64,000 nucleotides of DNA from a virus (Duplodnaviria; Caudoviricetes): the IMG/VR virus record IMGVR_UViG_3300005985_000001, positions 1 to 64,000 of that record; one strand, written 5' to 3'. The notes beneath the pieces were generated by a model that worked only from the letters and a program-made list of their open reading frames with translations, was not told the DNA's origin and searched no databases. This document shows, one piece after another, positions 33,978-64,000 of the stretch (its first letter is position 1; each line of letters opens with the position of its first letter). Position numbers and translations under genes: made by a program.

Positions 33978-34613
33978 CTAAGCTTGTTTCTCAAACTCGG
34001 CAAGGATCATGTTTTCTAGGCGAGTATTGAACTCATCTAACTCCGCATCCTGTGCAGCAGCCCACGCAGCAGCCCGTGCAGCATCCTGTGCAGCAGCCCA
34101 CGCAGCAGCCCGTGCAGTAGCCCACGCAGTAGCCCACGCAGCAGCCCACGCAGCATCCCACGCAGTAGCCCAGTCTTCATCAGTCAGTTCGCCATTAATC
34201 CATTGCTGCTTTAGATCAAGCAGTTCATAATGAAGCCGATTTGCAGTTTGAACTTTTGGATTTGTGCTAGACGGCGAAAACAAATCAAGAGCTTCACGAG
34301 CAACATCGACTGAGAATTGATGCAAAATTCTTTCTACATCGAGCATCCAGAGCGTTTTGCGGTATCGTGCAACCAGCTTATCGCTGCCTTCAACAACATC
34401 ACCCCAACATTCGACACGGCAAACGACAAGCGCATTGTTGCTGGCATAACTCAATGCATCAATCACTCGTCGGCTAGCGTGAAGCCCATATGCGCAAAGT
34501 TCAAGCTCGCCTTCTACAGAGAGTGTTTCTCCAACCTGGACAATGCGATTATCGCCATGTTTCAGTTTGCGATCCGAACCAATGAAATGCCAAGCCAGAA
34601 TTGAATCAGACAT
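33978..34613 (-). CDS. Phage protein with AAW[AD] tandem repeats
   Basis: LCAYGLHAS...DAL.YA....VCRV...G...DKLV.R pattern plus repeat tail. Confidence 0.75.
   Translation of the reverse strand: MSDSILAWHFIGSDRKLKHGDNRIVQVGETLSVEGELELCAYGLHASRRVIDALSYASNNALVVCRVECWGDVVEGSDKLVARYRKTLWMLDVERILHQFSVDVAREALDLFSPSSTNPKVQTANRLHYELLDLKQQWINGELTDEDWATAWDAAWAAAWATAWATARAAAWAAAQDAARAAAWAAAQDAELDEFNTRLENMILAEFEKQA
34045..34172. repeat. 12-bp tandem repeat, about 10 degenerate units (GCAGCAGCCCAC type)
   Basis: Directly visible; encodes AAWA/AAQD units. Confidence 0.85.
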
Positions 34614-44098: not shown

Positions 44099-44128
44099 TT
44101 GATTTTCCATAAAGACTTGTTATATAAT
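44099..44128 (+). promoter_or_regulatory. Sigma70-like promoter for the virion operon
   Basis: TTGATT-N18-TATAAT upstream of the CACCAC hairpin, SD and ATG 44185. Confidence 0.5.
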
Positions 44129-44184
44129 TGAGCCAAATGTTCTAAACAGGGACACCACCCCTGTCGAAGGAGAATACATCCAAT

Positions 44185-44592
44185 ATGCGACGGGTTCACT
44201 GCGAATGCGGCTGCGGCACAAGCTACCCTCCATCACAGATTGTTGTGCGCAGAAACAGCTACGGGCGTGAATTCCTGTATATTCCTCATGCCCTTGATCT
44301 GATGGGGTTATTTCGTCCTCCGCAGGAAATTCGTGTTAAGCTTGACGCCTGTCAGGTAGGTACCCACGAATACATTCTGCCGGGGGACGATTTTTATGCC
44401 TGTGCCTTAGCAGGCTGCCTCCCCGATGATTTTGTACGCCATGAATCGCAGTATGGACCCTATTGGGTACGGACTATTCCGCGAATTCGTGCCCAATGGG
44501 TAACAGCTACAGAAGTATCTGGCACGATAACTATTAATAAAAACCCGCTTATTGCATCGCCCTCTGTGCCCCTTCAGATCAAGCTTAAATAA
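44185..44592 (+). CDS. Hypothetical protein, first gene of the virion operon
   Basis: 135 aa, N-terminal HCECGC; hairpin and GAAGGAG SD; abuts terL. Confidence 0.7.
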   Translation: MRRVHCECGCGTSYPPSQIVVRRNSYGREFLYIPHALDLMGLFRPPQEIRVKLDACQVGTHEYILPGDDFYACALAGCLPDDFVRHESQYGPYWVRTIPRIRAQWVTATEVSGTITINKNPLIASPSVPLQIKLK

Positions 44593-46331
44593 TGGCGAAA
44601 TCCTTATACCGTTTAACAGAAGGCGACAAGGCGATCTTTGCAAAGATCCCTGAATCGCCGAACTACTTCACGGATTACTATATACGCGGGGACGCAACCG
44701 GAACCTGGTGGCGACCGGTCGAAGAACACTCCAGTGTTCCAGAAATTCAGGAAGTCATTGACAAGTGGGTACGCGGCTACGACATCCTCAATAACAAGTG
44801 GCGATCACTTGGTAAGCCCGATATTTTCGAGCACCGAAATCGTGAGTACATCGTCCATTACGAATTGGACTTTGAGTATCCGGCATTTCATGATCATCAT
44901 GGGTTTATCTTTCTGCCCTGGCAATTGCAGTATTGGAATGCCAAGCAAACGACAAAAATAATTATTGGTGGCTATGGGAGCGCGAAGACATCTGGCACAT
45001 TGGTTGCCAATTTGATTCGTATGGCAACTCTTCGCCAGTACACCTGCTATGTGGTTGCGGAATACTCACGTCAGGCACAGCAGGTATTCATTGATGCGAA
45101 GAACCTGCTCACGGGTACGGAATACGAAAAGCGATTCCTGCTTCGCTCCAGCAACGACACCGGCTGGGTTACGAAACCTACCTACAAGCTCACCGTGAAG
45201 AATAGTCAGTGTATTGAATCGACAATGGAATTCCTGTCGATTGAGCAGGACCCGGCAAGGATCAAAAACCTTCAGGGGGATGCCTTCCACATCGAGCAAG
45301 CTGAGCAGTTTAACAATCTGGATCAGGTGATGGAGTATCTGGGTTCCCGCTTGCGTGGGCAGGTGGGTGGACGCCCGCGCCTGGGATTGATGGAGTTTGT
45401 CGCCAATTCTGAAGAGTCTGGAAATCCTCAGCTATGGGATCTTGCCGACGAAGCTCTGACAGATCCAAAAGGCTACTTTTTTCTTCAACCAGAAACCTTC
45501 GACAATATCTACATCACACCAAAGCAGTTGATCGACATCGAAAAGCGAATGCCCAAAGACCCGGAGCATAAGGATCGTGCGCTCAAGGGCGCGCGTCCGC
45601 TGGGCAGCGGTGAGCATTTTCCGAAGAAAAGCCTCGAAAGATGCCGCTCTAAAATGCTCGATGACAAGATGCAGACAGGGCGTGAGGCGCAACTACCGGG
45701 TTATGTGCTCAAAAAGAAGGAAAAGGCACAGGTGGTTGAATGGGCAATGCCACCTGAAGAGGATCATCTGTACATCCTGGCGGCTGATCCCGGCTACAGT
45801 AATCCCCCCTATCGAAACTCGCCTGCATTATTTGTCTTTGACATCACGGATTACCCGCATATTCCCGCGCATCTAACCGCCTTTGCCTGGCCAGATGGGA
45901 ACAATTCTCCCGAACCCTGGATTGCGAAGTTTCTGGAATTTGCGGCGACTTATAAGTGTCAGAATCGCTGCGCCTTTGATGCGACTGCCTGGCAGTCGGG
46001 CTATGAGCGTGAGTTGCATGGTTTAACTGATCTCAATCCCTGGCCGGTGAAGCTGAATATTGCGACCAAAGCGACCTACCTGAATGCGCTGAAGACTTTG
46101 ATGAGTCAGGGCAAACTTCAGATCCCGGATATTCCGTTGGTTTTTTCACAGTTATCCAATTACAAGTTGCCGGATGACAAGCTGCGTCAGGATTTGGTGA
46201 TGGCGCTGCTCATTATCGCCGGACAGATTGATTTCATGTTCTCGGGTTTTACCGATGATCAAGAGAAGAAACCCACTCAGCAAGAAGAACGTTATGGCTT
46301 TCATAGCCGAGCAGGAGTACACGCACGATGA
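44592..46331 (+). CDS. terL: Terminase large subunit
   Basis: 579 aa; LPWQ, Walker A-like IIIGGYGSAKT, RNase H-like ILAADPG, FDAT, C-terminal QDLVMAL; upstream of portal. Confidence 0.85.
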   Translation: MAKSLYRLTEGDKAIFAKIPESPNYFTDYYIRGDATGTWWRPVEEHSSVPEIQEVIDKWVRGYDILNNKWRSLGKPDIFEHRNREYIVHYELDFEYPAFHDHHGFIFLPWQLQYWNAKQTTKIIIGGYGSAKTSGTLVANLIRMATLRQYTCYVVAEYSRQAQQVFIDAKNLLTGTEYEKRFLLRSSNDTGWVTKPTYKLTVKNSQCIESTMEFLSIEQDPARIKNLQGDAFHIEQAEQFNNLDQVMEYLGSRLRGQVGGRPRLGLMEFVANSEESGNPQLWDLADEALTDPKGYFFLQPETFDNIYITPKQLIDIEKRMPKDPEHKDRALKGARPLGSGEHFPKKSLERCRSKMLDDKMQTGREAQLPGYVLKKKEKAQVVEWAMPPEEDHLYILAADPGYSNPPYRNSPALFVFDITDYPHIPAHLTAFAWPDGNNSPEPWIAKFLEFAATYKCQNRCAFDATAWQSGYERELHGLTDLNPWPVKLNIATKATYLNALKTLMSQGKLQIPDIPLVFSQLSNYKLPDDKLRQDLVMALLIIAGQIDFMFSGFTDDQEKKPTQQEERYGFHSRAGVHAR

Positions 46332-47707: not shown

Positions 47708-47780
47708 ACTTTCGTAGCTCAGTTGGTAGAGCACCGATCTCCAAAATCGGAAGTCAGAGGTTCGAATCCTTTCGAGAGTG
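47708..47780 (+). tRNA. trnW: tRNA-Trp (CCA)
   Basis: Acceptor ACTTTCG/CGAGAGT; D arm GCTCAGTTGGTAGAGC; anticodon arm CCGAT-CTCCAAA-ATCGG; T arm AGAGG-TTCGAAT-CCTTT. Confidence 0.92.
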
Positions 47781-47897
47781 CCTTAGCCCGACTGGGCTAA
47801 ACACCGAAAACCGTCCGTATGGCGGCTGTTCTCATCGAGGAACTAGGTGCTGCCATGTCTCTGTGCATGGAATCGTCGTCATGACAGCGACGAAAGT

Positions 47898-48062: not shown

Positions 48063-49733
48063 ATGGCGCAGAACGAATTCTCCAATCCGGTTCCGGTGAA
48101 TCCGCTGGGGTCGCTAAACTCGCTGACGGGCAATCGTTTCGAGTCTACGCCTACAGTCGCTTCGATTTATGCGCTGACAGAGGACACGCTTCCCCCTGCT
48201 TTTCCACTGGCTCAATGGCAGGATCAGGCTGCACTCTACTATGCATACTGGGCTTGGTTCAATGGGGATTACATCAACCAGACCAAGCAGGGAGCCAATG
48301 GGGAAACGCTGTATAAGTTCCCCCTGCGCATTAACACCCTCCGCGATATTGTCCGTAAGCACGCCAGTGTCCTGTTTGGCGAAGCCCCGGACGGTCCCCG
48401 TCCGTTGGTCGAAACCTCGATCACGGCACGCAACGGTCTGACCGGCGAAGCTGCAACCGATGAGCAAAAGAAGTTTGCCAAGCTCTGCGAAGCGATTGTG
48501 AATGAGGTCTGGTTCCAATCCAACGGTCGAGCGATCCAGCAGGAAGGCGGCGAACTTACCCAGTTTCTCGGCGGTCATGTCTACCAACTCAGTTTTCAGC
48601 CCTGGCGCAAGGATTTACTCGTGCCAGTGGTGCTGCGAAGCTGGAAAGCCGACATGTTCCTGCCGATCTGGGAGAACGGCGATTACTGGAATCTCTCCGA
48701 AGCCTACATCGTCTGCCGGATTGAAGCGGCTCAAGCCAAGAATCAGTATGGCATCGAAACGACTGCTGTGTTCTGCACTTATGTAGAACACTGGACGCGC
48801 AAGAAGTATTCGATCTTCATCGACGGCACACCCGTAACTCTTGTCGCTGATGGACGATCCGTAACCTACAAAGATGTTGAGAACCCCTTTGGGATTGTGC
48901 CGTTCTACTACATCCCGCACCTGCGCGAAGGTGGATTTTTCGGCAGCAGCCATGTCCCGGATCTGGTCGGTCTGATCCAGGAATACAACTACTCGATGGC
49001 GAACCTCGGCGATGCGATTGCTGATAATATCGACCGCGACATCTACATTCGCAACTCTTCGCAGCGCACCAAAGTTGAGCTTCCCAATAGCAAAGAAGCC
49101 GTCAATCTGGGGATGCAGAATCCCTCGAATAACCACCCTCCAGATGCCTTTGCCATTGATCCCCCGCAGCTAGCGCCGGGTCTCACCAATCATCCGCAGC
49201 AGATTTACAACCAGATTCGCCGCACTGCATTTCTCCCAGCGGTTGCTGAAGGCGAAGATGAAGGTTCCCAGCGTTCCGGCGTGACGCTGGACATCCGTTT
49301 CTGGCCTGCCACTGCGCACGCCAAAGCGGAACGTTCCTTCTGGGAAACCGGACTGAACCTGATTGCCAAAGGCATCCTGACCATCATCCATACCAAGCGG
49401 CTCTGGAGTAAATACATCCCTGAGCTTCAGCAGGTGAAGGATAACTTCATGACCCAACTGAGTATTTCTCAGGATTGGTTCCCGCAGATCCCTCGTGACC
49501 GCGCCAGTGAAGTCAACGAAATTCTGGCTCGTGTCGGACAGTTCGGGATGAGTCCGGCAACCGCGCTGGACAAGTTTGGGGACATCGAAGACAAGGAAGC
49601 TGAACTCGAGGAAATCCGCGAATGGGCTGCTTTCCTGTCATCTCTGAAGACACCGGCTCAGGAACCTGGCAAGACCACTCCCCTCAATTCAAACCGTTTC
49701 GCTGAAAACAGCGATGCGATTGATAACAATTAG
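48063..49733 (+). CDS. Portal protein
   Basis: 556 aa between terL and scaffold; ENPFGIVPFYYIPH, GSSHVPDLVGLIQEYN, SG.TL, SPP1-like portal pattern. Confidence 0.85.
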   Translation: MAQNEFSNPVPVNPLGSLNSLTGNRFESTPTVASIYALTEDTLPPAFPLAQWQDQAALYYAYWAWFNGDYINQTKQGANGETLYKFPLRINTLRDIVRKHASVLFGEAPDGPRPLVETSITARNGLTGEAATDEQKKFAKLCEAIVNEVWFQSNGRAIQQEGGELTQFLGGHVYQLSFQPWRKDLLVPVVLRSWKADMFLPIWENGDYWNLSEAYIVCRIEAAQAKNQYGIETTAVFCTYVEHWTRKKYSIFIDGTPVTLVADGRSVTYKDVENPFGIVPFYYIPHLREGGFFGSSHVPDLVGLIQEYNYSMANLGDAIADNIDRDIYIRNSSQRTKVELPNSKEAVNLGMQNPSNNHPPDAFAIDPPQLAPGLTNHPQQIYNQIRRTAFLPAVAEGEDEGSQRSGVTLDIRFWPATAHAKAERSFWETGLNLIAKGILTIIHTKRLWSKYIPELQQVKDNFMTQLSISQDWFPQIPRDRASEVNEILARVGQFGMSPATALDKFGDIEDKEAELEEIREWAAFLSSLKTPAQEPGKTTPLNSNRFAENSDAIDNN

Positions 49734-50448: not shown

Positions 50449-50495
50449 GAAATTCTCTTCCTCGTACTTAAATCCCCGTTTTGGAGTACCCTCTC

Positions 50496-51902
50496 ATGTC
50501 TTACAATGTGAACGACACTTACGCTCTCGATCCCTGGGACGGGATCACCCTCAATGAGCGCACCTGGTACGATGGCGTTCTCCGCGAACGTTATACCCGT
50601 ACTTCGATCTATTCTCGTCATGTAACGATGAAGGTGGATCTGGCAGCTAAGCAGAGCCGCACCATCATCTTCAATGATCTCATTCCGCCCCACCCTTATG
50701 TTGGCGCACTGCCGAACCGCGAGATGAATGCCAGCCGTCTGTACGGCGATTCATTCCAGCGCAAGGTAACGGTTGAGCGTCAGGGCAACGGTATGTCGCT
50801 GCACCGTGAAAGCCAGATGTTCAATTACTGGACTGAGGGTGGCAGCCCGGATCTGCGTGCGATCATCAACCGCCAAATGGGACAGGTTGTGATTGATCAC
50901 GTCGATTTACTTGCACAGTATGCCTATCTGCGTAACTTCTATGCCATGTTTGGACTAGGCTCCGCGACCGGCTTCGGTGGTATCAACACTTCAACCGACC
51001 GCCTGACGACCGATTTGGTCGATGCGATCTGGCTGGGCATGATGGACCGCAAGCGCATCTGGACGGATCTGCCAGTCGATAATCTGCCCGACGAGATCTA
51101 CTGCATCACGACTCCAGGTGCGATTTATGACTTGAAACGTGAAGTAGACACCAACGCGCGTGCAGCCAACAAGTTCGTCAACATCGCCGAGTATGCTGCT
51201 CCCCAGCTTCTGTTTGCCCATCCAGGTGAAATCGGCAGCTATCGCGGGATTCGCTTCGTCGGTACGCAGCTTGCCGAACTATGGAACTGCGGTACAGTGA
51301 CGACCCAGACAGCGATTAAGGCAGCCGTGCAGCCCGGTGATGGCGCTGCCGACCCCGATCTGTATGCCGTCGATGATACCTTCTATGTTGGTCAGCCGGG
51401 CGCAACCCATAGTGTGACCGTTACGAGTACGACAGGTTTTGTGGTTGGTGATAAAGTCACGCTCCATAAGCTGCGTCACGACGGCACCAACCCGCGTGGC
51501 GTGCTGAACGGCGTGAACTATGAAGATCCGATGCGTGAAGATCTGGAAATCTTTGCGATTCCAGATAGCACCCATCTGGTTTTCAAGGCACCCTACACCC
51601 GCGTTGGACTGGACGGAAAAGGTCTGGAGACTGACCTCGGCAGTACGGTCTACGGCTATGTCACGAAGGGCGCGAACATTCATACTGCACTCTTCCTGAA
51701 CAACCGCTTCTCGCAAGGCGTGGTGGCAGGTGTGGCACAAGCGCCACGTTTCTATATGCCACCTGCCATTGATGACTTCGAATCCATCTATCGTATTACC
51801 TACGATATGTGGATGAAGTTCCAGCCATACGACCCTGCATCCTTCGAAGTTGCCTTTTTAGGAGGCTCGAACAAGCTAAAGGGTGGTGTGTTCGTTCGCT
51901 AG
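50496..51902 (+). CDS. Major capsid protein (HK97 fold) with a beta-rich insertion
   Basis: Position after scaffold; YCITTPGAIYDL, GEIGSYRGIRFV; GGAG SD before ATG 50496; terminator follows. Confidence 0.85.
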   Translation: MSYNVNDTYALDPWDGITLNERTWYDGVLRERYTRTSIYSRHVTMKVDLAAKQSRTIIFNDLIPPHPYVGALPNREMNASRLYGDSFQRKVTVERQGNGMSLHRESQMFNYWTEGGSPDLRAIINRQMGQVVIDHVDLLAQYAYLRNFYAMFGLGSATGFGGINTSTDRLTTDLVDAIWLGMMDRKRIWTDLPVDNLPDEIYCITTPGAIYDLKREVDTNARAANKFVNIAEYAAPQLLFAHPGEIGSYRGIRFVGTQLAELWNCGTVTTQTAIKAAVQPGDGAADPDLYAVDDTFYVGQPGATHSVTVTSTTGFVVGDKVTLHKLRHDGTNPRGVLNGVNYEDPMREDLEIFAIPDSTHLVFKAPYTRVGLDGKGLETDLGSTVYGYVTKGANIHTALFLNNRFSQGVVAGVAQAPRFYMPPAIDDFESIYRITYDMWMKFQPYDPASFEVAFLGGSNKLKGGVFVR

Positions 51903-52616: not shown

Positions 52617-53143
52617 TGGCGTACCAGGATGAGAGCGTCCTCAACATCCTCATCGATGCAATGGATGAGCGCCTGAATGAAGTGCTGGTGGGCGAATCCA
52701 ACGATGAGACCAAAGCCGGTCTGGTGCGTCCGGGCAACCTTCAGGAAGACCCCACCGATGCTGGCATCAACATTCTGATCCACGAAGGCGGCGTGGACTG
52801 GCAGGATGAACTCTATGTCGAGCAACACGGCATCGATGCGCCCACCTACGAAATTGGCGGTGTTGAATACTGGTTCCGTCGCTTTGAGATTGAACTGGAA
52901 CTCTTCTTTGATGGCGAAGACCAACGCGAACCTCCACGACGAAAAGCTTTGATCATTTACTCACGTGCCAAAAAAGCCCTCACCAGCATGGACATTCCTA
53001 CTGAAAAAGACAGTTTTGGAGAGCAGGCGCACATGATTCAGGTACGCAAAGGCTACACCTCCGAAGGCGGCGGTGAAGGCACGTTCATCTGGAATTGCTA
53101 CCTCTTTGTCGAATTTCTGACGAGTATCCGCGCCAATGCCTAA
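52616..53143 (+). CDS. Neck / tail-terminator-like protein
   Basis: 175 aa acidic protein, position between adaptor and tail tube. Confidence 0.55.
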   Translation: MAYQDESVLNILIDAMDERLNEVLVGESNDETKAGLVRPGNLQEDPTDAGINILIHEGGVDWQDELYVEQHGIDAPTYEIGGVEYWFRRFEIELELFFDGEDQREPPRRKALIIYSRAKKALTSMDIPTEKDSFGEQAHMIQVRKGYTSEGGGEGTFIWNCYLFVEFLTSIRANA

Positions 53144-54218
53144 TGTGATTGCGATCTTTCCCGGCAAGGAACGCACACCGGGAGGCTGTGAGATTTACCG
53201 CACCACCATGCCCTACTATCATCTTCAGAAGAAACACCCTGACTGGAAAGCGGACTGGGTATTTGGTGAAACCCTCTGGACGGACATCATGACCCGAGGA
53301 CCCATTGCCGCCAAGCAGTTTGCCGATCAGTATGACATCTTTGTGTTTCCCCGAAACTACGTCAAAGATGAAACAGGATTGGATAACTACCGTGAAATCA
53401 CTGATCTTTTGCATCATCTGGGTAAGCGCCTGATCTACGAAGTGGATGATGATCTGACCAATCAGGAACGTCAGGTCATTAACGGTGATGCAGTGAGTGT
53501 TGCCAAGCTCTGCGATGCTATCACGGTTACGACCAAAGCCCTCGGCGACCTGATGAAAGCCAGAACCGGCAAGCCCGCCTACGTGCTGCCGAATATGTTT
53601 GCCCCAGAAACCTGGCTGGAGCCTTTTGCCGGAACGTTCCGTTATGCCGACAAGATCACGATTGGTTTGACCGGCTCTCCCACACACGAACGCGATTGGG
53701 AAGTGCTCAAAGATGTGCTGCCGAAAGTCGTTCAGGATAATGGTGTGCATCTGGTGCTCATGGGCTATCACCCAGAGTATCTTCAGGATTTACCAAATAC
53801 TTCCTATATTCCAGGTTTGCAGTATAATAGATATGCGCAAGTCATCCAGACTTGCGACATTATCCTCGCTCCACTCAATCACGAAGTTTTCAATCTTAGT
53901 AAATCCCCGATAAAAGTCCTTGAAGGACAAGCTGCCCGACGCTTCATTGACAAGCGTCCCGCAGGAGCCGCCTGTATTGCCACTGATCATCCGGTCTATC
54001 GACTTGCCATAAAGCCTGAAAAAACCGGATTGCTCGTTGAGCATACGCCGAGCGCCTGGCAGGAAGCTCTGGATCGCATGATCTATGATGAGCGCCTGCG
54101 GCATCAGCTTCAATTCAACGGTCATGAATGGGTGCAGAAGCACCACGACATCTCCAAGACCGCAACCCTCTGGCGCAACGCCTACGAAAGCATTCTCCGC
54201 AAACCCATCCCCGCTTAA
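53136..54218 (+). CDS. GT-B (family 4-like) glycosyltransferase
   Basis: IYEVDDDL, CDAITVTTKALGD, VLPN, IGLTGSPTHERDW, DIILAPL...FN.SKSPIKVLE, TGLLV. Confidence 0.88.
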   Translation: MPNVIAIFPGKERTPGGCEIYRTTMPYYHLQKKHPDWKADWVFGETLWTDIMTRGPIAAKQFADQYDIFVFPRNYVKDETGLDNYREITDLLHHLGKRLIYEVDDDLTNQERQVINGDAVSVAKLCDAITVTTKALGDLMKARTGKPAYVLPNMFAPETWLEPFAGTFRYADKITIGLTGSPTHERDWEVLKDVLPKVVQDNGVHLVLMGYHPEYLQDLPNTSYIPGLQYNRYAQVIQTCDIILAPLNHEVFNLSKSPIKVLEGQAARRFIDKRPAGAACIATDHPVYRLAIKPEKTGLLVEHTPSAWQEALDRMIYDERLRHQLQFNGHEWVQKHHDISKTATLWRNAYESILRKPIPA

Positions 54219-54239: not shown

Positions 54240-55346
54240 ATGTCTGTTTCTGCGCAGCTAGGCGACTTTGGATTCGCCATTCAGCCTTCTAAAGTCGGTC
54301 GAACTGGAACCTATACCGGTTCCGGTTACAAGTGGTATCGTATGGACCCGCTCACGGTCCGTATGGATATTATTCAGGGCGACCAGGTGCTTCCACCCGA
54401 AGTTTCGCCGGACATTGTGCCGAAAGGCGCGTATAAGGACGGCTATTTCGGTGCAGGTCAGGCCGACCTGATCCCGCGTCTTCAGAACTCCTTCGGCGCA
54501 CTGCTCTGGGGCTTGATGGGCAACGCCTCATCGGTCACAGGCAAGGACACCGATGGCGTGTCTGCGACGAACGTCAATACTCACATTTTCAGTTACAACC
54601 CAAGCGACAAGGCAGATCAGCCCTGGATGTCCTTCCGACGCCTGATCCCTGGCAAAGTAGCCGCAGATCGCTATGGGCAGACCTTCTTCGATGCCAAAGT
54701 TGCCAATGCGCGTATTACTATCCCGCAGAAGGGCAAGCTGATGGCGCGAATCACGATGGTGGCCCGTGATGTGGATCAGGAAGAGAACCCCACCTGGGTC
54801 TGGGATGTGGACTATGAAGACACGACTTCTACGCCACAATCCGATCAGGGTTATCTGAAGATGCAGGGTACGGAATTTCCGATCACGGGTGCGGTTTTTG
54901 AACTGGACAATGGCTTGACTACGCCAGATCAGGAACGCATCATTGGCGATCCCCGCCCTGATGACTTCACGGCACTCTATCGTCCGGCAACCCTGCGGTT
55001 TGTCTACAAGTGGGAAGACCCCAGCCTGTATCAGCAGGTATTCAATGGCGGCGACGGTCTGACCGACTGGGATCCGCTGCCGAAGATCTTCTCGACGGTT
55101 GGCGCGAACTTCGCCTTCGATGCCATGTTCGAGACGCCGTTGACTATTAGTGGTTCTTCGCCTGCACGAAAGTATGCGGTACGTATTCGTGGCAACAGTG
55201 CCACGCTTGCTCCAGATGGCCCAATTGAACTTGCAAGCGCAACCCTGCTCCAGCAGGCATTCACGCTGACTATCCTCAAAGCAACCGGCAATGCGCCGTA
55301 TCTCCAGATTCTGCTCCAGAACGGTGTCACTGGTTATTCTGCCTAA
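54240..55346 (+). CDS. Major tail (tube) protein
   Basis: 368 aa beta-rich protein preceding chaperones and the tape measure position. Confidence 0.75.
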   Translation: MSVSAQLGDFGFAIQPSKVGRTGTYTGSGYKWYRMDPLTVRMDIIQGDQVLPPEVSPDIVPKGAYKDGYFGAGQADLIPRLQNSFGALLWGLMGNASSVTGKDTDGVSATNVNTHIFSYNPSDKADQPWMSFRRLIPGKVAADRYGQTFFDAKVANARITIPQKGKLMARITMVARDVDQEENPTWVWDVDYEDTTSTPQSDQGYLKMQGTEFPITGAVFELDNGLTTPDQERIIGDPRPDDFTALYRPATLRFVYKWEDPSLYQQVFNGGDGLTDWDPLPKIFSTVGANFAFDAMFETPLTISGSSPARKYAVRIRGNSATLAPDGPIELASATLLQQAFTLTILKATGNAPYLQILLQNGVTGYSA

Positions 55347-55368: not shown

Positions 55369-55788
55369 ATGCGTTTGTCCAAGAAGCCCGTTGAGAAGAC
55401 ATTTACGAAAGACTTTGGCGGGGATAAGCCTGCCAGCATCACCGTCCGGCAGGCCAACATCGGCGACATCACCAAGCGTAATGGACTCCTTTCGGAGTCC
55501 TCGCTGGTACTCAATGATGAATTGCTCGGTCAGGAAATCAAGCAGGACATCAATTACTACGAGTTGTTCCGCTTTGAAGTGTTCCTGACCCTGACGGCTG
55601 CGAACTTCGAAGACGAGGACACCGGTGAGTCTTATTTCACCTTCGTGAATGGACGCCTGCGCGACCAAGCTGCTTTCGAGAAAGCTTGGAATGCCATGAC
55701 AGACATCGAAGTCGCGGACTGGATTCACGAGTGCGTGGTGGAAGTCAACCCACAGTGGAGCCGCCAGGTAGCAGACGCGGGGGAATAG
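55369..55788 (+). CDS. Tail assembly chaperone (gpG-like)
   Basis: 139 aa acidic protein ending in the GGGGGAA slippery site. Confidence 0.75.
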   Translation: MRLSKKPVEKTFTKDFGGDKPASITVRQANIGDITKRNGLLSESSLVLNDELLGQEIKQDINYYELFRFEVFLTLTAANFEDEDTGESYFTFVNGRLRDQAAFEKAWNAMTDIEVADWIHECVVEVNPQWSRQVADAGE

Positions 55789-56111
55789 ACCGCCACTTGA
55801 AGGCAGTAGGTGATGCTGTCTTCGAGTGGCTGAGTTATCACGAGCCGACTGCTCACGACCCACACGGGATCGGAGCAAAACCTGAAGGACCCGAGCCGGA
55901 GCGACCAGAAGCCTATGACATTCTTCTGCAACTCCGGCGTTTTCACTTAACCTGGGCGCAGGGCGGCTACGAAGACCAGCCCTGGCTGCTCACTGAAGAA
56001 CTCAATGCTGCGTCTGACGCGGAGACCCGGCACAAAAACTTAATTTTATTGAATCAGAAGCGCCGAGAAGAGTGGGCGGCTTCTCAGAAAGCAAAAGGTC
56101 TGCTGACATGA
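55369..56111 (+). CDS. Tail assembly chaperone, -1 frameshift product (gpGT-like)
   Basis: GGGGGAA at 55779-55785 just before TAG; the -1 frame stays open to 56111. Confidence 0.75.
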
Positions 56112-59100
56112 GACTTCGGCGCAACATGGCGTTCAATGCCAACCTCGATGTAGACAATCAGGATCACTACCGGCACTTGATGAATCGCCTGGATCGTGAA
56201 GGCATCAAGTACGGGATGAATGATGTCGATCTGGGCTTTGGGCGGAACCTCACGGCGATCACCATCAACCAGCGCATCCGCGATAAGGACGTGCAAAGCC
56301 ACCTCTTCTATGGTCCCGAAGGTGGCTTATATGTCTCTAACCCGAACAACACGGGTGGCGTGCGTCCGATCCTGTCCACCATTCGGTTCAATAAAGATGA
56401 ATCTATCTCGCCTTCCAATCCTCTGATGTCGCCGGTGGATCGTGTGATTAACATGATCCAGAATCCAAATTGGGAAGACCCAAAGACCAAGCGAGTTTCG
56501 CAGTATGGCTTGTCTACGCTGGCACAGAAACAGGGAGCAGATAACGTCTCCTGGCAGCGTCTCGAAGCCCAACCCGGTCTGGATCGCCTGTTTCGCAACG
56601 GCGTTCAACTGAGCGGTGAAAAGTATAGTTATAACGATAAGATTGACCAGCTTAATCGCGCAACCGGAAGTGATTATGTCAACTACGCGAGAGTAGGCGC
56701 AGCATATCGGGCGAAAGATTACGAGGCGGTGATTCCCACCAACAATGCTGGTGGAATGCTCATTTCAAAACTGAAGGAAGCAAAACTTTTCACCGGTAAA
56801 GTTTCGGATGCCGTCATTGGCAGAAACATCTACGAGCCATCCCCGGAGCCTTTCTACTTTGAAGGTCAGGCAGGTCCGAATCAGTCGGTCGTGCTTCGTG
56901 GCGCATTTGATCTTTTCTCGGAAATCCCTGAAGGCGCAGCATTTACGGCTGGTTTAGGGGCTGCCAATCGCATCAGTCGTACAGTAACACTCCCAAGAGG
57001 GACGACCTATGATCCCGATACAGGTGGGTTGACGCTGGCAAATGGCACCGCCTTAAGTGCGGGAACCTATTTTGGCGGGAAGCCGCCCGGCAGTTATAGT
57101 GACTATACCCGCCTGGGTGGAAAACGTGAATATAACGACATCTTTGGCGTTTCAATGGGAAGTTATCACTCGACGCTGATCGAGAATATTGTTCCCGAAC
57201 TCAATGATCGTGGGCAGTTCACGGGTCGAGCAACCTTTGATGCGCGTGCCATTACCAAAGACGTAGCCATAAAATCATGGATAAAAGCCGAAGGGATGGA
57301 CATTCACCGTTCGGCAATGCCTTTTGACGAGGAAACAGATCGGCATGTCGATACCTGGATGCGCTTGCCCGATCTCAAGAAACTGCCTGCACTGGCTTTA
57401 AAAGCCCTTGCCGCAGATATGAATAATACAGAAGCTTTTGGGCAATGGTTCGGTGAACAGGCGTCTGCGCGTGGGATGTCAGCGGACTGGATTGCTCAGA
57501 ATTTCCAGAATGGGCAGGTCAGTAAAGAAGCCACGCCACTGGTAACAGAGGCAGCCATTCAGCGTTTATTAAGCAAGGCAACGTACAATCCACAAAATCC
57601 GCGTCGGAATGTTCCATTAGGATCAACTGAATACGAAGCCTTTCGTAATGTGACCTTTATCCATCAGGGACAGTCCTACAATGTACTTGGAAATGTACAA
57701 GCCCGCGATGATGGAACCTATCTTGCGGAGACTTTCCATACACCCCGGATTGTCACCGACTACGCGACTAATGTGCGTACTGAACATGTGCGCGATACGA
57801 TGCGAATTAAGCCGGGAACGCTGTCCATCATGGCACAGAATAACCCGGAACTCTTTGATTCGCTGACATCCATTGCTCAGGCAACCCGGAAGAACAACCG
57901 CGCTTTTGCCATGACCTCGGCATTTCGCGCCAATAGTTCATCCGAACAACGTCAGGCAGTGCAGGATATATTTGGTATCGACAAACTGGATATTGCTCAG
58001 GTCGGACGTTTACGAGAAGAATATCTGTCGAATAACACGGATGTCAGTGATAGTGGCATGTTCCGTCACATTCTCAGTGGATTGGCTGAGCAGTATGGCG
58101 AGCAAGCACTGGAACTGAAGACTCCACAGGGGTCGATGATCCTACCCAATGCCCGAACGATTCGGGCAGGATTGCGACGAAACAATGATAACCCGGAATT
58201 AATCAACAACTGGTCAAAAAGTGCAGCGGGTCTGATTACTGCACTAGGGGATGATTCTATTTCTCCCGATATTATTCAGAACATGGCCAATGACACTTAT
58301 GCCAGAATGGAAGAACATTCTGGCAAGCGGGGTGTTCAGCAAAAAGCCACGAGTATTGAACTCGGGCGGTTAGGCGGTTTTGCGCGTTCAACGCCTGGTA
58401 TTCCCGATAACATGGCAATTACCTCATTGGCAACCATTCAAAAACGGACGGGTATCGAGAATCCTGATGAGATACGCCGGATGGCAGCGCAAGGTGACCT
58501 TGTGCTCTCTGGCTGGCGCTATCCCTCTACGCACGCGAAAGACTTTGCTGCATCGGTTCGACTGGGCATTTATGAAGATCAACCGCAGTGGTACAAAGAT
58601 CGCTATCTAAATCCAGGAAGGGATGTTTACACCTCTCCTGAAATCATGCGGGCGTTGCGCGGAGACAATGATGGCGACCGCTTTCAAGCTGTCCTAAATC
58701 GTTTTCGAACGCAAGCAGCCGAATTCGGGAAATCCCTTACTGCACTCACGCCAAGACAGGTCGTTCAACGTGCAGCCAATGCGTTTGAGAGCGAACGCAC
58801 CAAGTTCATCAAAACGATGGCGGAACGTTCCGGGATGGATCTGGCGAACACACCTTTGTCTGCGTTCTCATCTTTCTCCTATTCCCAGAAACAAATGCGC
58901 GAAGATTTTCTCACAGAGGAGCGAGAAGCCAAGAGTCTGATTGGCATCAACACCAACACCTTTAACCGCAGTATGGGGATGGCAGCGCGTTCTGGTGCAG
59001 AGCAGCTTTTTGGAGTCGATAGTCCGCTGACGGACCGGATTGCAGTGGCGTTTTCGAGCATTGAGAATATCACCGGCGCATCAGCACTCGACCGCGCTGC

Positions 59101-62100
59101 TAACAAGGACACTGCTCTGGAATACTTGCAGCAGGTGGGACAGGACAAGGGGCTGTATCGCACAGGTGCACGATTCTGGAACCGCTCAACCGGCAAAACT
59201 CTGACCGGACCAGAATCTCAATTCCAGGAAATTTTTAAACAACTTTCTAGTATTGGTTCTAACCTGGAAGGTGAGCCGGTGCTGGGTATTAGCCCAGATC
59301 AGGAATACCGGCAAAAACTAGCGCCTGCGATTGCGACGGCAATGCTCACGCGCGACGAGATGAAACGCCTGGCGGATTCTGGCGAACTGGATCAGCGCAT
59401 CAACCAGATGGCAGATATGCTTACTCAGCGCCGTGCCACTGGAGAAGACATCAGCACCCAGCTTTTGCCACTGACCGGCGCTGCAAAATTTGCGGAGTGG
59501 GGTGAAGGCAACGGTTCTGGATTGGGTTCACAGTCCAGTATTGGACAGTGGATTACTGGACAGATTGCCAATAACTATCGCTTGTCACAACGCAAAGATA
59601 AAAGTGGCAATAAGATGGTTGACGCCAACGGGAAACCCGTCATTATGGGTGAGTTCCCGACCGACTGGGGCGCACAGTATGAGAATGCAGGCAAGATTGC
59701 CCAGAGCATACAAGAATTTAATACCAATCTCGGCAAGCGGCGAGGGAATAATACACTGGAACAGGCGGTTCGCTCAGTAGCCGGTGGCGGCGAACGTCTG
59801 AAAAACTTCCTCGGTGGTATGTTCCCTGGACTGGCGCAGGCTACACAGCGATTCGCTGTTGCACCGGTTGATGATCCAAGTTTGTACAATCCAGGCGCTT
59901 ACCTGACCGCCTCACAGTGGACCAGTGGCACCGGAGTAGACGATGAACTGCTGCGTCTGGTGAATTTGAACACCACCTCAGCGGAACGTTCCGGCGTAAT
60001 TGCCGAACTGATGAAGTCCGGTGCATTCCAGGAGTATCGTCCCTACAGCGGTCCTGCCAATAACGCGGATAAAGTCGGGACGCGCATGGAGAATGTGCTG
60101 ACCGGCAAACTGGCAGCCCCTGAGAACCAACAGATTCTTATGGCGAATGCTCGGCGTCGTATGGGCAACTCTCGGGCGGACTTCGGGATGCGCGACAGTG
60201 CAGGCAACCTGGTAGTCGGTGACATCAAGACCAAGAGCCGCACGGGGCTGATGAGTGACCTTCTGGGTCCGTCTCTGCGTGGCGACATCATGGGTCAGGT
60301 CTCCAACTACATCACCGGTACTCGTATCGACGGCGGCGAACGTCAGACCGGCGATTACGGCGTGGTCGTAGGCGGGATTCGTCTTAGCGACAACCCGAAC
60401 ATGCCGGAATCTGAAGTCGCGGCTGGGTTCGAGCAGGCGCACGATCTGGCGATGCAGATGTACAGTAACAGCCAGATGCCGACTTCATGGGCAAATGCAG
60501 GCTGGACGCAGGAACGATGGGAGTCTCATCGTCAAGCCTCGATGCAGGCCATGCAGGACATTTACGCCGCTTCGGGGATGAAAGTGGCTGCGCGGGTTGT
60601 GACCGGTGAAGAAGCAGAACAGTTCCTCAATGCCCGTCAGGGCGACATCTACAATCTGAAGTCGATTCGTCCTGAGCATCGTGCTGCGGACATGGCGGGT
60701 CGTGCGCAGCAAATCATGGCGCTGCGTGGTGGCGGCAATATCAGTGGTTCTGGAGTAGGCTCTCCGCCCCCTCCAAACATGCCTGGCGCACCTCCGGCTC
60801 CACCTTCGGGCGACGATGGCTATGTTCCGTCCAGTGCCAGTGGAAGCGGCGGCTCGGGTGGCGGCGGCTCAGTGGTCAACAATAACACTGTCTACCGGAT
60901 GTCCAACCCACGCATCACATCCAAGCAGATTGCCGAAGCAGAGATCGCACTGGAACATCTTGGCGAAGCCGCGAAGACCTTTGCAACCGGATCTAAAGAA
61001 GCCCGCGAAGAGATGCTCAAGCACTACGATGCTTTGAAGACTGTCTCTTCATACCTGAGTGACGTGGAGCGGGCACAGCGTTCGCCGGACGGCTTCAATA
61101 CCAACAATCCTAACTATCTTCTGCTTCAGCAGCGATTGGGCAGCGGGCGTGCAGGTGGCTCGGCGTTTGGCACCATCAACAATGCCGTTTATGATCCTGC
61201 ATTGAGCAATGCGGCTTATGAAGCCCAGCTTGCCAATATGCGAGACACCGGCGAAGAGCCGCCGCAATCTCGGCTCCAGCGCATGATGCGCGGCGGGCAG
61301 GATCTCGCTGAACGTATCATCAAAACGCAGGGCTTGTTCCATGCAAAGCTGGCGTTCAATATGTTTGCAGGCTCGGCGATTGGCGCAGCCGATAACTGGC
61401 AGGATCAGCAAGCTGCACAGGGAATGATGCTGGCACAAGCCGGTCAGTTGACGTTCAATCAACTGATGGGCAGTCAATTCGGAACCATGCAGCGTCGTAA
61501 CATCGCCCTTCAGGAAGGCGGGCTTGCCTATGGGCAACAGGTCTACAGCGCCTATGCGCCGTTGATCAACTTCGCAGCCGGTCCCGACACTGCGAAAGGT
61601 CCGCTGGGCGCAATGGCAGGGATTGGCGTGCCTGCGTTTGGCGTTGCGGCGGCTGCGACGACACTTACTGGCAGTCCTCTCTTTGGTGCTGTAGCGGGTG
61701 GTGTCACAGCCGGTATCGGCACGCTTGGCTATATGTCATCGAATGCCGTAAACTATCAGGCAGTCGGCGCATTTAATCAGCAGCGCAATGCCGGGATGGG
61801 CTTACAGGCAATGTTCCAGAATACAGCCGGAGCAGCCGGGGCTTTCTGGAATGATCTGGGGCGCGGGTTGGGTCTTGTTTCCGACGAAGACTACCAGCGG
61901 TATCTGGATGCGCCTCAGTTCAACGACCTGATTCAACGTTATTCACGCGGCGAAGTTGGGCGTCAGGAAGCAATTGCTCAAGCCGAAGCCATGCGTTTCA
62001 ATGGTGGCGACCTGATGGCAGGTGGCTTGGAGGCCTGGGTGCAGTCCCAGACTCGCGCAGGTGCATCTCGTGAAACGGCATTGAGCAACTACAGCTACTG

Positions 62101-64000
62101 GGCACGTTATAATCCGAATTATATGCCAGGCGGCGACCTTGCCGGTCAGATGACCCGCATTGCAATGGGCGGCGGGGATACAGGAACGGTTGCCCAGTCC
62201 TTCGCTGGATCGCGCGGTATCAGCCCGTTTAGTCAGTCTATGATGGATAGCGTAAATCGCTATGCCATGAACATGCTCACTGATCAACAGAATATGGGCT
62301 TGTTCACGGAAGCATCCAGCTTTGTGGGACAGCAGATTGGTGGTGTCAATCAGGCACTGCGTATGGCAGGACTGGGTAGCAGCCAGGCTGATCTCCTTCA
62401 GATGGTGCAATTCCTGCAAAATGGTGGGTCACTTGACCAGTTCAATGCAGGACTTCAGAGCCGAGGTACTGCTGCCTCGCTTCGCATGAGTACACCGGGT
62501 TTCTTCGATGTGGGTGGCTATCGACTGAAAGATAACTGGGAAGTATTCTCTGGTCAGGGTGATTTTGTCACGACTGAACGCTTGCAGCAGCAGGCAATGC
62601 AAGCCGGGCAGATGTATAACCAGTTCCTCGCCAATGGCGCTTCGCCGGGAGATGCCTTTGCCAATGCTTACCGCTACGGCACGGACTACGATGAAGCCAG
62701 CGCGAACCGTCAATTCCAAATGCTTCAGGGCAATCAGCGAGTCATTTCACTTGAAGGTGTCCGAACCCAGAATGCTGCATTGCAAACGATCAATCCGAAC
62801 ACGGGGATGGGCGCATACTACAACAACGTCAATGCCGAGAATATCGCGGCGCTGAGAGCCAACAATCCCTTTGGCTTGTTCAACCTCACCGACGAAGAAG
62901 CACGCATGGGCGAGATGGGCTGGCAGAACCAGATCCTGCGCGCCAATCGCGGGCTGGAAGCTTACCAGTATGGGATGCGAGTGCGTCAGCGTGATCTGGG
63001 CTATGCGCTCACCACTGGCAATATGTTCCAGGCAGGGGGTCTGTTCGGTGCAGACGGAATGGCATTCAACCCCGGCGATGGCAGAGGCTTCTGGCAATTG
63101 GAAGATGCATCTCGTCGTCTGAATCGTGCGCAGCAGTCCTTCTCGTATGAGCAGGATACGGCACAACTGGGGATTCGTCAGCGTGAATTCGAGCTTTCTG
63201 GTTTGCAGTGGCAGACCAATTACGAATTGCAGCAGCGCCAGTTTGCATACAATACGCAGTATCAACGCGAAACACTGGGCATCTCGCGTGGACGCGAACT
63301 GGAACAGCAAAGCTGGCGACGAGAGGATCTTGCTTTTTCCAGATCACAACTCGATATTGGCTTTGCGTGGAATATGGAAGATGCAGATCGCAATATCCGC
63401 TATGCGCGTGGGCGTGAGAAGCGCGATCTGATGCGTCAGAAAGCCCGCGAAGTCATTCGCTACTCGATGGAATCGTCTCAACTGGATCGTCAGACCGAGC
63501 GCAATGAACAGCAAGTCGGCTGGTCGCAGCAGGACTTCGAGCGCCAGAAGCAGTATTTCGAACAGGGCGTTCAGTTCCAGAAAGAGGCGATGGAGAACCA
63601 GAAGAAGTTCTACGACCAGAACCGTGAACTGGATCGCCAGCGTCTTGACCTGGCAAAGCAGGCGCATGACCGTCAACTGGGCTGGATGCAGGAAGGCTGG
63701 CAGATCGAAGATCAGCGTATCCTGCTCGAACGCCAGAACTACCAGTTGTCCTACAAGCAGCAGGTCGATATGGATACCCGGATTCGTGAGAACACGCTCA
63801 CGGTGCAGCGATGGAGCGATGCGATTGATCAGGCAGGACGTGTCATGCAGGAACGGATTGCAGCGATCAATACTGCGGTGAGTACCGGGAACATCACTAG
63901 CCCACAAGCGCAACGGAACCTGAACAATTATTCCTATACAGGCTTGTCGCAGGATTCGGGTAGTGGCAGCAGTTCGAGCGGCACGGGATTGCCCGTGAAT
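56108..64000 (+). CDS. Giant tape-measure-position protein (>2630 aa, 3' truncated) with RNA-polymerase-like and PD-(D/E)xK nuclease domains
   Basis: ATG overlaps the chaperone stop (ATGA); frame read by hand over most of its length and open at the window end. RYP (aa 804-806), GDNDGD (aa 852-857), RADF...VGDIKT...QVSNY (aa 1356-1401), Pro/Gly linker, then Ala/Gly/Gln helical and coiled-coil region. Confidence 0.88.
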   Translation, partial: MRLRRNMAFNANLDVDNQDHYRHLMNRLDREGIKYGMNDVDLGFGRNLTAITINQRIRDKDVQSHLFYGPEGGLYVSNPNNTGGVRPILSTIRFNKDESISPSNPLMSPVDRVINMIQNPNWEDPKTKRVSQYGLSTLAQKQGADNVSWQRLEAQPGLDRLFRNGVQLSGEKYSYNDKIDQLNRATGSDYVNYARVGAAYRAKDYEAVIPTNNAGGMLISKLKEAKLFTGKVSDAVIGRNIYEPSPEPFYFEGQAGPNQSVVLRGAFDLFSEIPEGAAFTAGLGAANRISRTVTLPRGTTYDPDTGGLTLANGTALSAGTYFGGKPPGSYSDYTRLGGKREYNDIFGVSMGSYHSTLIENIVPELNDRGQFTGRATFDARAITKDVAIKSWIKAEGMDIHRSAMPFDEETDRHVDTWMRLPDLKKLPALALKALAADMNNTEAFGQWFGEQASARGMSADWIAQNFQNGQVSKEATPLVTEAAIQRLLSKATYNPQNPRRNVPLGSTEYEAFRNVTFIHQGQSYNVLGNVQARDDGTYLAETFHTPRIVTDYATNVRTEHVRDTMRIKPGTLSIMAQNNPELFDSLTSIAQATRKNNRAFAMTSAFRANSSSEQRQAVQDIFGIDKLDIAQVGRLREEYLSNNTDVSDSGMFRHILSGLAEQYGEQALELKTPQGSMILPNARTIRAGLRRNNDNPELINNWSKSAAGLITALGDDSISPDIIQNMANDTYARMEEHSGKRGVQQKATSIELGRLGGFARSTPGIPDNMAITSLATIQKRTGIENPDEIRRMAAQGDLVLSGWRYPSTHAKDFAASVRLGIYEDQPQWYKDRYLNPGRDVYTSPEIMRALRGDNDGDRFQAVLNRFRTQAAEFGKSLTALTPRQVVQRAANAFESERTKFIKTMAERSGMDLANTPLSAFSSFSYSQKQMREDFLTEEREAKSLIGINTNTFNRSMGMAARSGAEQLFGVDSPLTDRIAVAFSSIENITGASALDRAANKDTALEYLQQVGQDKGLYRTGARFWNRSTGKTLTGPESQFQEIFKQLSSIGSNLEGEPVLGISPDQEYRQKLAPAIATAMLTRDEMKRLADSGELDQRINQMADMLTQRRATGEDISTQLLPLTGAAKFAEWGEGNGSGLGSQSSIGQWITGQIANNYRLSQRKDKSGNKMVDANGKPVIMGEFPTDWGAQYENAGKIAQSIQEFNTNLGKRRGNNTLEQAVRSVAGGGERLKNFLGGMFPGLAQATQRFAVAPVDDPSLYNPGAYLTASQWTSGTGVDDELLRLVNLNTTSAERSGVIAELMKSGAFQEYRPYSGPANNADKVGTRMENVLTGKLAAPENQQILMANARRRMGNSRADFGMRDSAGNLVVGDIKTKSRTGLMSDLLGPSLRGDIMGQVSNYITGTRIDGGERQTGDYGVVVGGIRLSDNPNMPESEVAAGFEQAHDLAMQMYSNSQMPTSWANAGWTQERWESHRQASMQAMQDIYAASGMKVAARVVTGEEAEQFLNARQGDIYNLKSIRPEHRAADMAGRAQQIMALRGGGNISGSGVGSPPPPNMPGAPPAPPSGDDGYVPSSASGSGGSGGGGSVVNNNTVYRMSNPRITSKQIAEAEIALEHLGEAAKTFATGSKEAREEMLKHYDALKTVSSYLSDVERAQRSPDGFNTNNPNYLLLQQRLGSGRAGGSAFGTINNAVYDPALSNAAYEAQLANMRDTGEEPPQSRLQRMMRGGQDLAERIIKTQGLFHAKLAFNMFAGSAIGAADNWQDQQAAQGMMLAQAGQLTFNQLMGSQFGTMQRRNIALQEGGLAYGQQVYSAYAPLINFAAGPDTAKGPLGAMAGIGVPAFGVAAAATTLTGSPLFGAVAGGVTAGIGTLGYMSSNAVNYQAVGAFNQQRNAGMGLQAMFQNTAGAAGAFWNDLGRGLGLVSDEDYQRYLDAPQFNDLIQRYSRGEVGRQEAIAQAEAMRFNGGDLMAGGLEAWVQSQTRAGASRETALSNYSYWARYNPNYMPGGDLAGQMTRIAMGGGDTGTVAQSFAGSRGISPFSQSMMDSVNRYAMNMLTDQQNMGLFTEASSFVGQQIGGVNQALRMAGLGSSQADLLQMVQFLQNGGSLDQFNAGLQSRGTAASLRMSTPGFFDVGGYRLKDNWEVFSGQGDFVTTERLQQQAMQAGQMYNQFLANGASPGDAFANAYRYGTDYDEASANRQFQMLQGNQRVISLEGVRTQNAALQTINPNTGMGAYYNNVNAENIAALRANNPFGLFNLTDEEARMGEMGWQNQILRANRGLEAYQYGMRVRQRDLGYALTTGNMFQAGGLFGADGMAFNPGDGRGFWQLEDASRRLNRAQQSFSYEQDTAQLGIRQREFELSGLQWQTNYELQQRQFAYNTQYQRETLGISRGRELEQQSWRREDLAFSRSQLDIGFAWNMEDADRNIRYARGREKRDLMRQKAREVIRYSMESSQLDRQTERNEQQVGWSQQDFERQKQYFEQGVQFQKEAMENQKKFYDQNRELDRQRLDLAKQAHDRQLGWMQEGWQIEDQRILLERQNYQLSYKQQVDMDTRIRENTLTVQRWSDAIDQAGRVMQERIAAINTAVSTGNITSPQAQRNLNNYSYTGLSQDSGSGSSSSGTGLPVN

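Follow-up and report, generated by a model that had tools for sequence, protein, structure and literature searches.

A predicted two-barrel RNA polymerase module at the N terminus of a phage tape measure protein

We analysed a 64,000-nucleotide stretch of viral DNA (Duplodnaviria; Caudoviricetes), positions 1 to 64,000 of IMG/VR record IMGVR_UViG_3300005985_000001, hereafter the window. The record is a complete 83,741-bp genome (circular assembly, 123-bp terminal overlap), of which the window is the first 64 kb. At the right end of the window lies a giant open reading frame (ORF) on the + strand, 56108-64375, that encodes 2755 amino acids (aa) with no internal stops; the window ends at aa 2631. 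Its ATG at 56108 overlaps the stop of the preceding ORF and was also chosen by the gene caller of the source record, and an in-frame GTG lies upstream at 56072. A first-pass annotation of this DNA had placed at 56108-59400 a two-barrel RNA polymerase fused to the N terminus of the tape measure protein. The ORF extends past that span, and the proposal is supported by the predicted fold, conservation and gene context. We put at about 80% the probability that the giant protein is a tape measure protein with a functional-looking N-terminal two-barrel RNA polymerase module. The precedent that had been invoked, gp96 of Thermus phage P23-45, is real: gp96 is a virion RNA polymerase of the two-barrel type that is fused to the tape measure (Chaban et al. 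2024, PMC10770324; PDB 8H2M/8H2N). The giant ORF contains the following features.

56108..64000, on to 64375, + strand: giant ORF, comprising the predicted RNA polymerase module, a middle region, a Pro/Gly linker and the tape measure proper
56711..57799, + strand: half resembling beta/Rpb2, aa ~202-564, where barrel B is expected (structural alignment of the model)
56924..56935, + strand: IPEG, aa 273-276, with the candidate barrel-B carboxylate E275 (conservation and order)
57272..57286, + strand: K389...K393, candidate barrel-B basic pair (conservation)
57935..59164, + strand: beta'/Rpb1-like half, aa ~610-1019 (structural alignment of the model)
58361..58765, + strand: barrel A, predicted double-psi beta-barrel, aa ~752-886 (structural alignment of the model)
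58517..58525, + strand: R804-Y-P806, the RxP of barrel A (conservation)
58664..58678, + strand: D853-N-D855-G-D857, the DxDxD motif, predicted to bind metal (conservation)
58886..59011, + strand: long helix, aa 927-968, candidate bridge helix (model helix 738-779, of low confidence)
59915..60577, + strand: optional insert with a PD-(D/E)xK-like motif series, aa ~1270-1490
60730..60880, + strand: Pro/Gly/Ser-rich linker, aa ~1541-1590, between the N-terminal ~1540 aa and the tape measure proper (translation)
61598..61747, + strand: Gly/Ala-rich hydrophobic segment of membrane type, aa ~1831-1880 (Kyte-Doolittle)

Translation of 56108-63998 bore out the motifs on which the first-pass annotation had relied. 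GWRYP lies at aa 802-806 (R804-P806, 58517-58525) and LRGDNDGDRF at aa 850-859 (D853, D855 and D857, 58664-58678), with 49 residues from R804 to D853; IPEG (aa 273-276) and AIKSWIKA (aa 387-394, with K389 and K393) were also where they had been claimed. Chaban et al. filtered with [RK]xPx{20,100}DxDxD (PMC10770324), and the motif of the giant protein passes it. The pattern R.P.{30,60}D.DGD arose in 69 of 20,000 shuffles of the giant protein (0.35%), and D.DGD alone in 871; chance occurrence of the motif was rejected on conservation and fold.

To collect homologues, we searched the first 1100 aa with HMMER against every protein in a set of 1.84 billion representatives. The search returned 12 homologues (E values of 4e-194 to 3.5e-12), all of 1805-4304 aa, all metagenomic and rare; no stand-alone form of the polymerase domain was present among them. 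The family thus has 13 members at 50% clustering, five of them on contigs of 81-86 kb. Identity to the homologues is 21-40%. Within the alignment, P806, D853, D855 and D857 are invariant in all 13 sequences, R804 is present in 12 of 13 and G852 is nearly invariant; within the N-terminal 1500 aa, no 15-residue block is more conserved than the one with DxDxD. In the upstream half, all 13 sequences keep G276 and K389 and have a second K/R at +4 or +5 from K389; E275 is found in 12 of them. Searches of other collections gave no relatives: in a tblastn search of a collection of known phages there was no match to the polymerase module and no recognisable relative of the terminase, scans of IMG/VR and GTDB genomes were negative, and a word-indexed protein search returned the giant protein itself only, and nothing for the tape-measure half alone.

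We modelled aa 190-1050 with AlphaFold2 from the 13-sequence alignment. This predicted structure (in which residues 563-697 are aa 752-886) had a mean predicted local distance difference test score (pLDDT) of 72.8 and a predicted template modelling score of 0.65, with blocks of 80-94 pLDDT over most of aa ~240-800. In a Foldseek search of the PDB, the top 50 matches were all second-largest RNA polymerase subunits (Rpb2/beta; best E value 2.5e-4, probability 1.00), from polymerases I, II, III and IV, vaccinia virus, African swine fever virus, plastids, cyanobacteria and phage AR9. In a second, Foldseek-independent alignment to 48,161 representative PDB chains, the first 20 were all two-barrel polymerases. 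QDE-1 (7y7p_A) gave a Z score of 8.5 (root-mean-square deviation [rmsd] 5.2, 372 residues aligned), followed as second-best representative match by gp62 of phage P74-26 (8f5m; Z 7.4, rmsd 3.5, 194 aligned); gp96 of P23-45 (8h2m) reached Z 7.0 (rmsd 5.2, 207 aligned), with model residues 22-678 set against chain residues 461-793, a range that covers both barrels plus the DFDGD of gp96. Plant RDR2 and the beta and beta' subunits of many organisms were also listed, with PolD further down. Isolated double-psi barrels (CDC48-N, VAT-N and designed barrels) ranked just below the RNA polymerases and mapped to model residues 563-697, including RYP and DNDGD (designed barrel 7dww, Z 5.0).

In a third analysis, we re-aligned the 1000 best Foldseek chains. 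QDE-1 (7y7r_A) again scored well (Z 8.8, 292 aligned, rmsd 4.5). Residues 750-1100 of Rpb2 (2nvx_B) aligned to model residues ~13-375 (Z 7.4, 239 aligned), where pLDDT is mostly 80-94, and largest subunits aligned to model residues 421-830, including E. coli beta' (3lu0_D, residues 22-503 on model 422-708; Z 7.3), M. tuberculosis (6edt_D) and vaccinia virus (6rfl_A). Barrel A (model 560-712) matched beta' of P. gingivalis (8dkc_D, residues 358-513; Z 7.4, rmsd 3.6, 122 aligned) and of T. thermophilus (4wqt_D, residues 620-786; Z 7.0, rmsd 3.5). Beta-type chains always fell on aa ~200-565 and beta'-type chains on aa ~610-1020, which is collinear and is the order of single-chain enzymes. A model lacking two barrels, named in the first-pass annotation as what would speak against its proposal, was not what AlphaFold2 and the three structure searches returned.

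The weight lies in how uniform the lists are, in the collinear mapping of two halves and in the coincidence with the conserved motif. Taken with the model, these observations support the reading of the first ~1050 residues as a single-chain two-barrel RNA polymerase composed of a beta-like half, a connector and a beta'-like half with RxP and DxDxD. Tentatively, the 42-residue helix at aa 927-968, which follows barrel A, may be the bridge helix; beta' alignments stop at ~806-811 opposite model ~772-782, and pLDDT is <50 there. The Arg-x-Pro that is invariant in barrel A of two-barrel polymerases is R446/P448 in Rpb1 and is matched here by R804-P806. As for barrel B, its known residues are D837, K979 and K987 in Rpb2 and D709, R738 and K743 in QDE-1 (PMC2919709). 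The beta-like elements tentatively proposed in the first-pass annotation, IPEG and K389/K393, proved to be conserved, correctly ordered and inside the beta-like half; as equivalents of Rpb2 D837/K979/K987 they are candidates by order only. E275, K389 and K393/394 would form the barrel-B triad on this assignment by order and conservation.

The model also matched viral proteins in BFVD. The best match was an uncharacterised protein of Microcystis phage MaMV-DC (A0A075BUT7_2, E value 5e-11), the next a "minor tail protein" of Siphoviridae sp. ctnpt50 (A0A8S5SD80_1, E value 2e-9, 998 aligned columns), then an Acinetobacter phage protein and, afterwards, mostly giant-virus RNA polymerase beta subunits; proteins of uncultured crAss-like phages were among the weaker matches. 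The first three phage proteins have no polymerase annotation, and the MaMV-DC and ctnpt50 proteins may, judging from the model, be further unannotated tail-borne polymerases.

Several results weigh against a functional polymerase in the tape measure. Pfam, PHROGs and NCBIfam searches with the N-terminal 1100 aa and sub-pieces found no RNA polymerase, nor did Pfam on all 13 family members, and PF00623 and PF05183 had no match in the six-frame translated genome. Neither phmmer nor hmmsearch with the family profile (E values up to 10) found an RNA polymerase among all PDB sequences, a set that includes gp96 (8H2M), gp64, QDE-1 and all cellular enzymes, and hhalign comparisons of the family with that of gp96 (probability 0.6%), with gp64 and with rpoB gave nothing. 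The sole sequence trace was a weak hhalign match to E. coli beta' (rpoC), which set GDNDGD on NADFDGD over 23 columns (E value 0.063). The model itself is based on 13 sequences, and the two catalytic loops, with RYP (model 616-625) and DNDGD (663-687), have pLDDT <50, so that the model does not fix how the Mg site is arranged. Z scores of 7-8.8 are individually middling, and template modelling scores are low (0.13-0.19) because one half aligns at a time. The candidate carboxylate of barrel B is Glu (E275), whereas it is Asp in all known members (PMC2919709). Sigma-70-like promoters serve both gene arms of the phage, so that an injected polymerase is not obviously needed. Finally, all ORFs of at least 100 aa in the 83.7-kb genome included no second polymerase of the gp64 type: other DxDxD strings occur in three proteins of 141-366 aa, one of which is the beta clamp, and outside the head-tail module only the recombinase and DnaB are long enough.

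The poorly modelled catalytic loops, the Glu in barrel B and the lack of sequence similarity to active enzymes would each fit a polymerase fold that is a relic, with the domain serving structurally or in ejection, for example as a plug or an envelope anchor. Yet the three Asp residues, RxP, G852 and the K...K pair are kept at 21-40% identity, which a dead enzyme would not do, and it is the DxDxD block that is best conserved in the N-terminal 1500 aa. We regard a relic as very unlikely.

An alternative that keeps the fold active is a primase-like or QDE-1-like polymerase rather than a promoter-specific transcriptase, acting on single-stranded or entering DNA (or RNA), for instance in priming replication or making anti-defence RNA. 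QDE-1, the best structural match (Z 8.5-8.8), is RNA/DNA-dependent and prefers single-stranded templates; the promoters on both arms are ordinary and sigma-70-like, with no evident separate promoter class; and a nuclease-like insert adjoins the polymerase in 7 of 13 homologues. However, QDE-1, gp62 and gp96 are tied within ~1.5 Z units, so that the ranking is silent on template preference. In addition, the phage has its own DnaG-type primase, and gp96, the one tape-measure fusion that has been studied, is a transcriptase (PMC10770324). Such an enzyme therefore seems to us an unlikely explanation, and we retain the transcribing polymerase as the preferred one.

The nuclease-like insert (aa ~1270-1490) is carried by 7 of 13 homologues and cleanly missing from the other six. 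It contains a D...GDIKTK...QxxxY series, in which D...DxK and QxxxY are conserved, and has a weak profile match to the nuclease domains of UvrD/AddB-type helicases (E values 0.6-1); its AlphaFold2 model (pLDDT 46) was unusable.

Beyond the linker, the tape portion comprises ~1165 aa and at the usual 1.5 Å per residue would correspond to ~175 nm, an ordinary length. Its Gly/Ala segment (aa ~1831-1880) is the only stretch with a Kyte-Doolittle value >1.4 and is among the best-conserved blocks. A membrane-type hydrophobic stretch occurs in many tape measure proteins. The C terminus of the giant protein is a Q/R-rich helical tail, and the family profile matched lambda gpH (8iyk_H, E value 3.5e-8) over a C-terminal GGxTGxG...VHxGExV motif. 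All five contigs examined, this one included, share one gene order; in the four relatives (P0003, P0014, P0013 and P0010) it runs portal, capsid, adaptor, tube, two small ORFs and giant gene. Because the giant gene occupies the tape-measure slot, the gene order is kept in four relatives and the gpH motif is present, the identification of the giant protein as the phage tape measure is supported, at the level of sequence and position.

No Pfam or PHROG tape-measure family matches the giant protein, and its first ~1540 aa are clearly not tape; it might thus be a separate injected pilot protein, with another gene setting tail length. In all 5 contigs examined, however, the giant gene directly follows the tube gene and a chaperone-type pair, and the C-terminal motif of lambda gpH is present. 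No other long helical ORF exists in the tail module, and the downstream ORFs (868, 393, 491 and 964 aa) matched only tail proteins or proteins of unknown function. A separate pilot protein is, on this balance, extremely improbable, and we continue to treat the giant protein as the tape measure.

The layout of the 83.7-kb genome is that of a siphovirus. Upstream of the giant gene, the rightward arm carries the following features.

44592-46331: terminase large subunit
47708-47782: tRNA-Trp
48063-49733: SPP1-type portal
Between the portal and the major capsid protein: coiled-coil scaffold-like protein
50481-51902: major capsid protein
Between the major capsid protein and the glycosyltransferase: SU10-type adaptor
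53136-54218: group-1 glycosyltransferase, with the head-tail connector genes on one side and the gene for the tail tube on the other
54240..55346, + strand: tail tube protein gene (PF18906 Phage_tube_2, E value 1.3e-9)
55369-55788 and 55731-56111, + strand: two overlapping small ORFs in the tail-assembly-chaperone position, the second in the -1 frame

The two small ORFs had no match in family searches; the same pair lies upstream of the giant gene in the 4 relatives. A glycosyltransferase gene occupies the same slot in two relatives too (L004 and L008), and its position among the head-tail genes suggests glycosylation of a virion protein. The leftward arm encodes RecA, DnaB, a DnaD/O-like initiator, a DnaG-type primase, a beta clamp and a complete 635-aa large serine recombinase. 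The recombinase suggests a temperate life style. Inside the initiator gene (12019-13188, - strand), a 21-nt unit, GGTATCTAATACCAGGGGGGT, is repeated 3.9 times at 12604-12684; as in lambda O, these repeats probably represent iterons of the origin. A 211-aa ORF (33978-34613, - strand) holds a tandem array of 9.9 copies of a 12-nt unit, GCAGCAGCCCAC, at 34054-34172.

The first-pass annotation had also pointed to candidate cis-elements, namely a palindrome, hairpins and TTCGTAG promoters. The promoters were its weakest part: the heptamer is enriched (24 observed against 4.5 expected), but, because TTCGTAGTATAAT holds an ordinary -10 box, the sites resemble host sigma-70 promoters and not targets of a phage enzyme. 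A 20-nt motif, TTCGTAGTATAAT(c)AGTACA, occurs in four copies on the - strand (9748, 19400, 34664 and 40296), each upstream of a leftward gene block and with a CACCAC hairpin next. In these four extended TTCGTAG copies, the -10 box is perfect or near-perfect, and from their sequence they are probably operon promoters of the early/replication arm. The rightward arm starts from TTGATT-18-TATAAT at 44099-44128, which likewise resembles a host promoter.

The hairpins and the palindrome are real repeated elements. The hairpins have stems of 4-7 bp that differ in sequence and a fixed (N)CACCAC(N) loop; GAAGGAG(AA) ribosome-binding sites follow them at a distance of 0-10 nt. They number ~20 in all: ~18 on the - strand (2039-42353), one on the + strand (44146-44164) and one at genome position 83285-83301. 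The - strand has 19 instances of CACCAC followed by AAGGAG within 16 nt, and the + strand has two. The individual folding energies are unremarkable, and the motif is absent at the loci examined in four relatives, those of the structural genes only. The sequence GGAACGTTCC occurs 31 times in 83.7 kb, 28 times as a 12-bp palindrome, CGGAACGTTCCG, with copies both between and within genes, two of them in the giant ORF (positions include 2063, 2651, 5003, 8781, 9638, 11685, 15360, 21920, 23911, 26510, 27545, 34962, 36524, 38026, 38683, 40017, 41596, 47372, 51948, 53630, 58821 and 59982). Relatives have iterated palindromes in the same GAA...TTC frame: GGAACGTTCC 6 times in 28.7 kb (L004), GGAAATATTTCC 4-5 times in 27 kb (L012) and GAACCGGTTC 5 times in 20.8 kb (L008); in L011, we saw none. 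From these sequences, the palindrome looks like a putative site bound by a dimeric, lineage-specific protein with which it co-evolves. In P23-45, gp96 reads pre-early genes through a promoter class of its own, TTATTCYTTTA; the likeness of this motif to the complement of the GAAGGAGAATA ribosome-binding region here was dismissed as a coincidence of strand.

By analogy with P23-45 gp96, the giant protein would be built into the tail at assembly, assisted by the pair of chaperone-type ORFs upstream, and on infection would be expelled into the cell envelope. There the polymerase module would transcribe the first phage genes off the entering DNA without host RNA polymerase, and the host enzyme would take over later at sigma-70-like promoters. 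The phage thus probably injects its own transcription enzyme, if gp96 is a guide, and we consider injection together with early transcription moderately probable on the same analogy. Catalysis by the predicted polymerase, its packaging in the virion, the genes it reads and its promoters are what we infer here.

A more speculative and rather doubtful proposal is that these phages follow a simpler strategy, in which a probably temperate phage has one polymerase, the tape measure delivers the transcription enzyme, plus a PD-(D/E)xK nuclease in 7 of 13 members, and the enzyme reads lineage-specific signals, either the CACCAC-loop hairpins before ~20 genes or the iterated GGAA...TTCC palindrome, whose centre differs between relatives. 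If this were true, a single injected polyprotein would link the entry of the DNA with its processing and its first transcription.

Among known systems, QDE-1 and plant RDR2 (7w84_A, Z 6.9) are the single chains whose structures match best across the two barrels. Like the predicted module, they are single polypeptides with a DxDGD loop; unlike it, they are cellular enzymes of RNA silencing that are not fused to a virion protein, and they share no sequence similarity with it (no match to PF05183). P23-45 gp64 and P74-26 gp62 (PDB 8F72/8F5M) are likewise small single-chain two-barrel enzymes with RxP...DYDGD, but they are free-standing early non-virion proteins of 590-616 aa and again show no sequence similarity. 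Lambda gpH (PDB 8IYK) shares with the giant protein the C-terminal motif and the position after the tube and chaperone genes, but it has 853 aa and lacks an enzymatic N-terminal extension. The N4 virion RNA polymerase has an unrelated, T7-like fold. In N4 and in crAss-like phi14:2 (gp66, PDB 6VR4), a polymerase resides inside a giant virion protein and is delivered with the DNA, and gp66 is also a two-barrel enzyme; these phages are podoviruses, however, and the carrier is not the tape measure. Neither 6VR4 nor YonO was among the structure matches listed, which is no evidence against a relationship.

The closest counterpart in arrangement is gp96, a type also found in Thermus phages P74-26, G20c and TSP4 (PMC10770324). 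In both proteins, the polymerase module is N-terminal, the protein sits in the tape-measure slot, and the order is barrel B, connector, barrel A. DxDGD lies at residues 779-783 of gp96 and at 853-857 here, with RxP 40-50 residues upstream in both, and both genomes are of siphovirus type and ~84 kb. The architecture of gp96 is flat and lacks a clamp. By contrast, tblastn, profile and hhalign comparisons detected no sequence similarity between the two. The giant protein has 2755 aa against 5002 for gp96, no metallopeptidase domain was found in it, ~190 aa separate its barrels where gp96 has a short disordered connector, and a nuclease-like insert is present in 7 of 13 members of its family; unlike P23-45, the phage encodes a large serine recombinase. 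A search for relatives of gp96 found none outside Thermus phages, and the literature searched describes no tape-measure-fused RNA polymerase outside the hot-spring Thermus Oshimavirus group. The family described here is a second, sequence-unrelated lineage of tape-measure-fused virion polymerase, a kind that entered the literature in 2024. Tipping the tape measure with a cell-type polymerase would then not be peculiar to thermophiles with 800-nm tails: the arrangement is found in phages with a tape of ordinary length, one with a large serine recombinase, and looks widespread, yet missed by sequence annotation. With its new, very diverged sequences, the family would also help to delimit the minimal two-barrel core, and it would serve as a test case of a phage whose virion polymerase has no second polymerase beside it. 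By analogy, the giant protein would work like gp96 while standing outside the gp96 sequence family.

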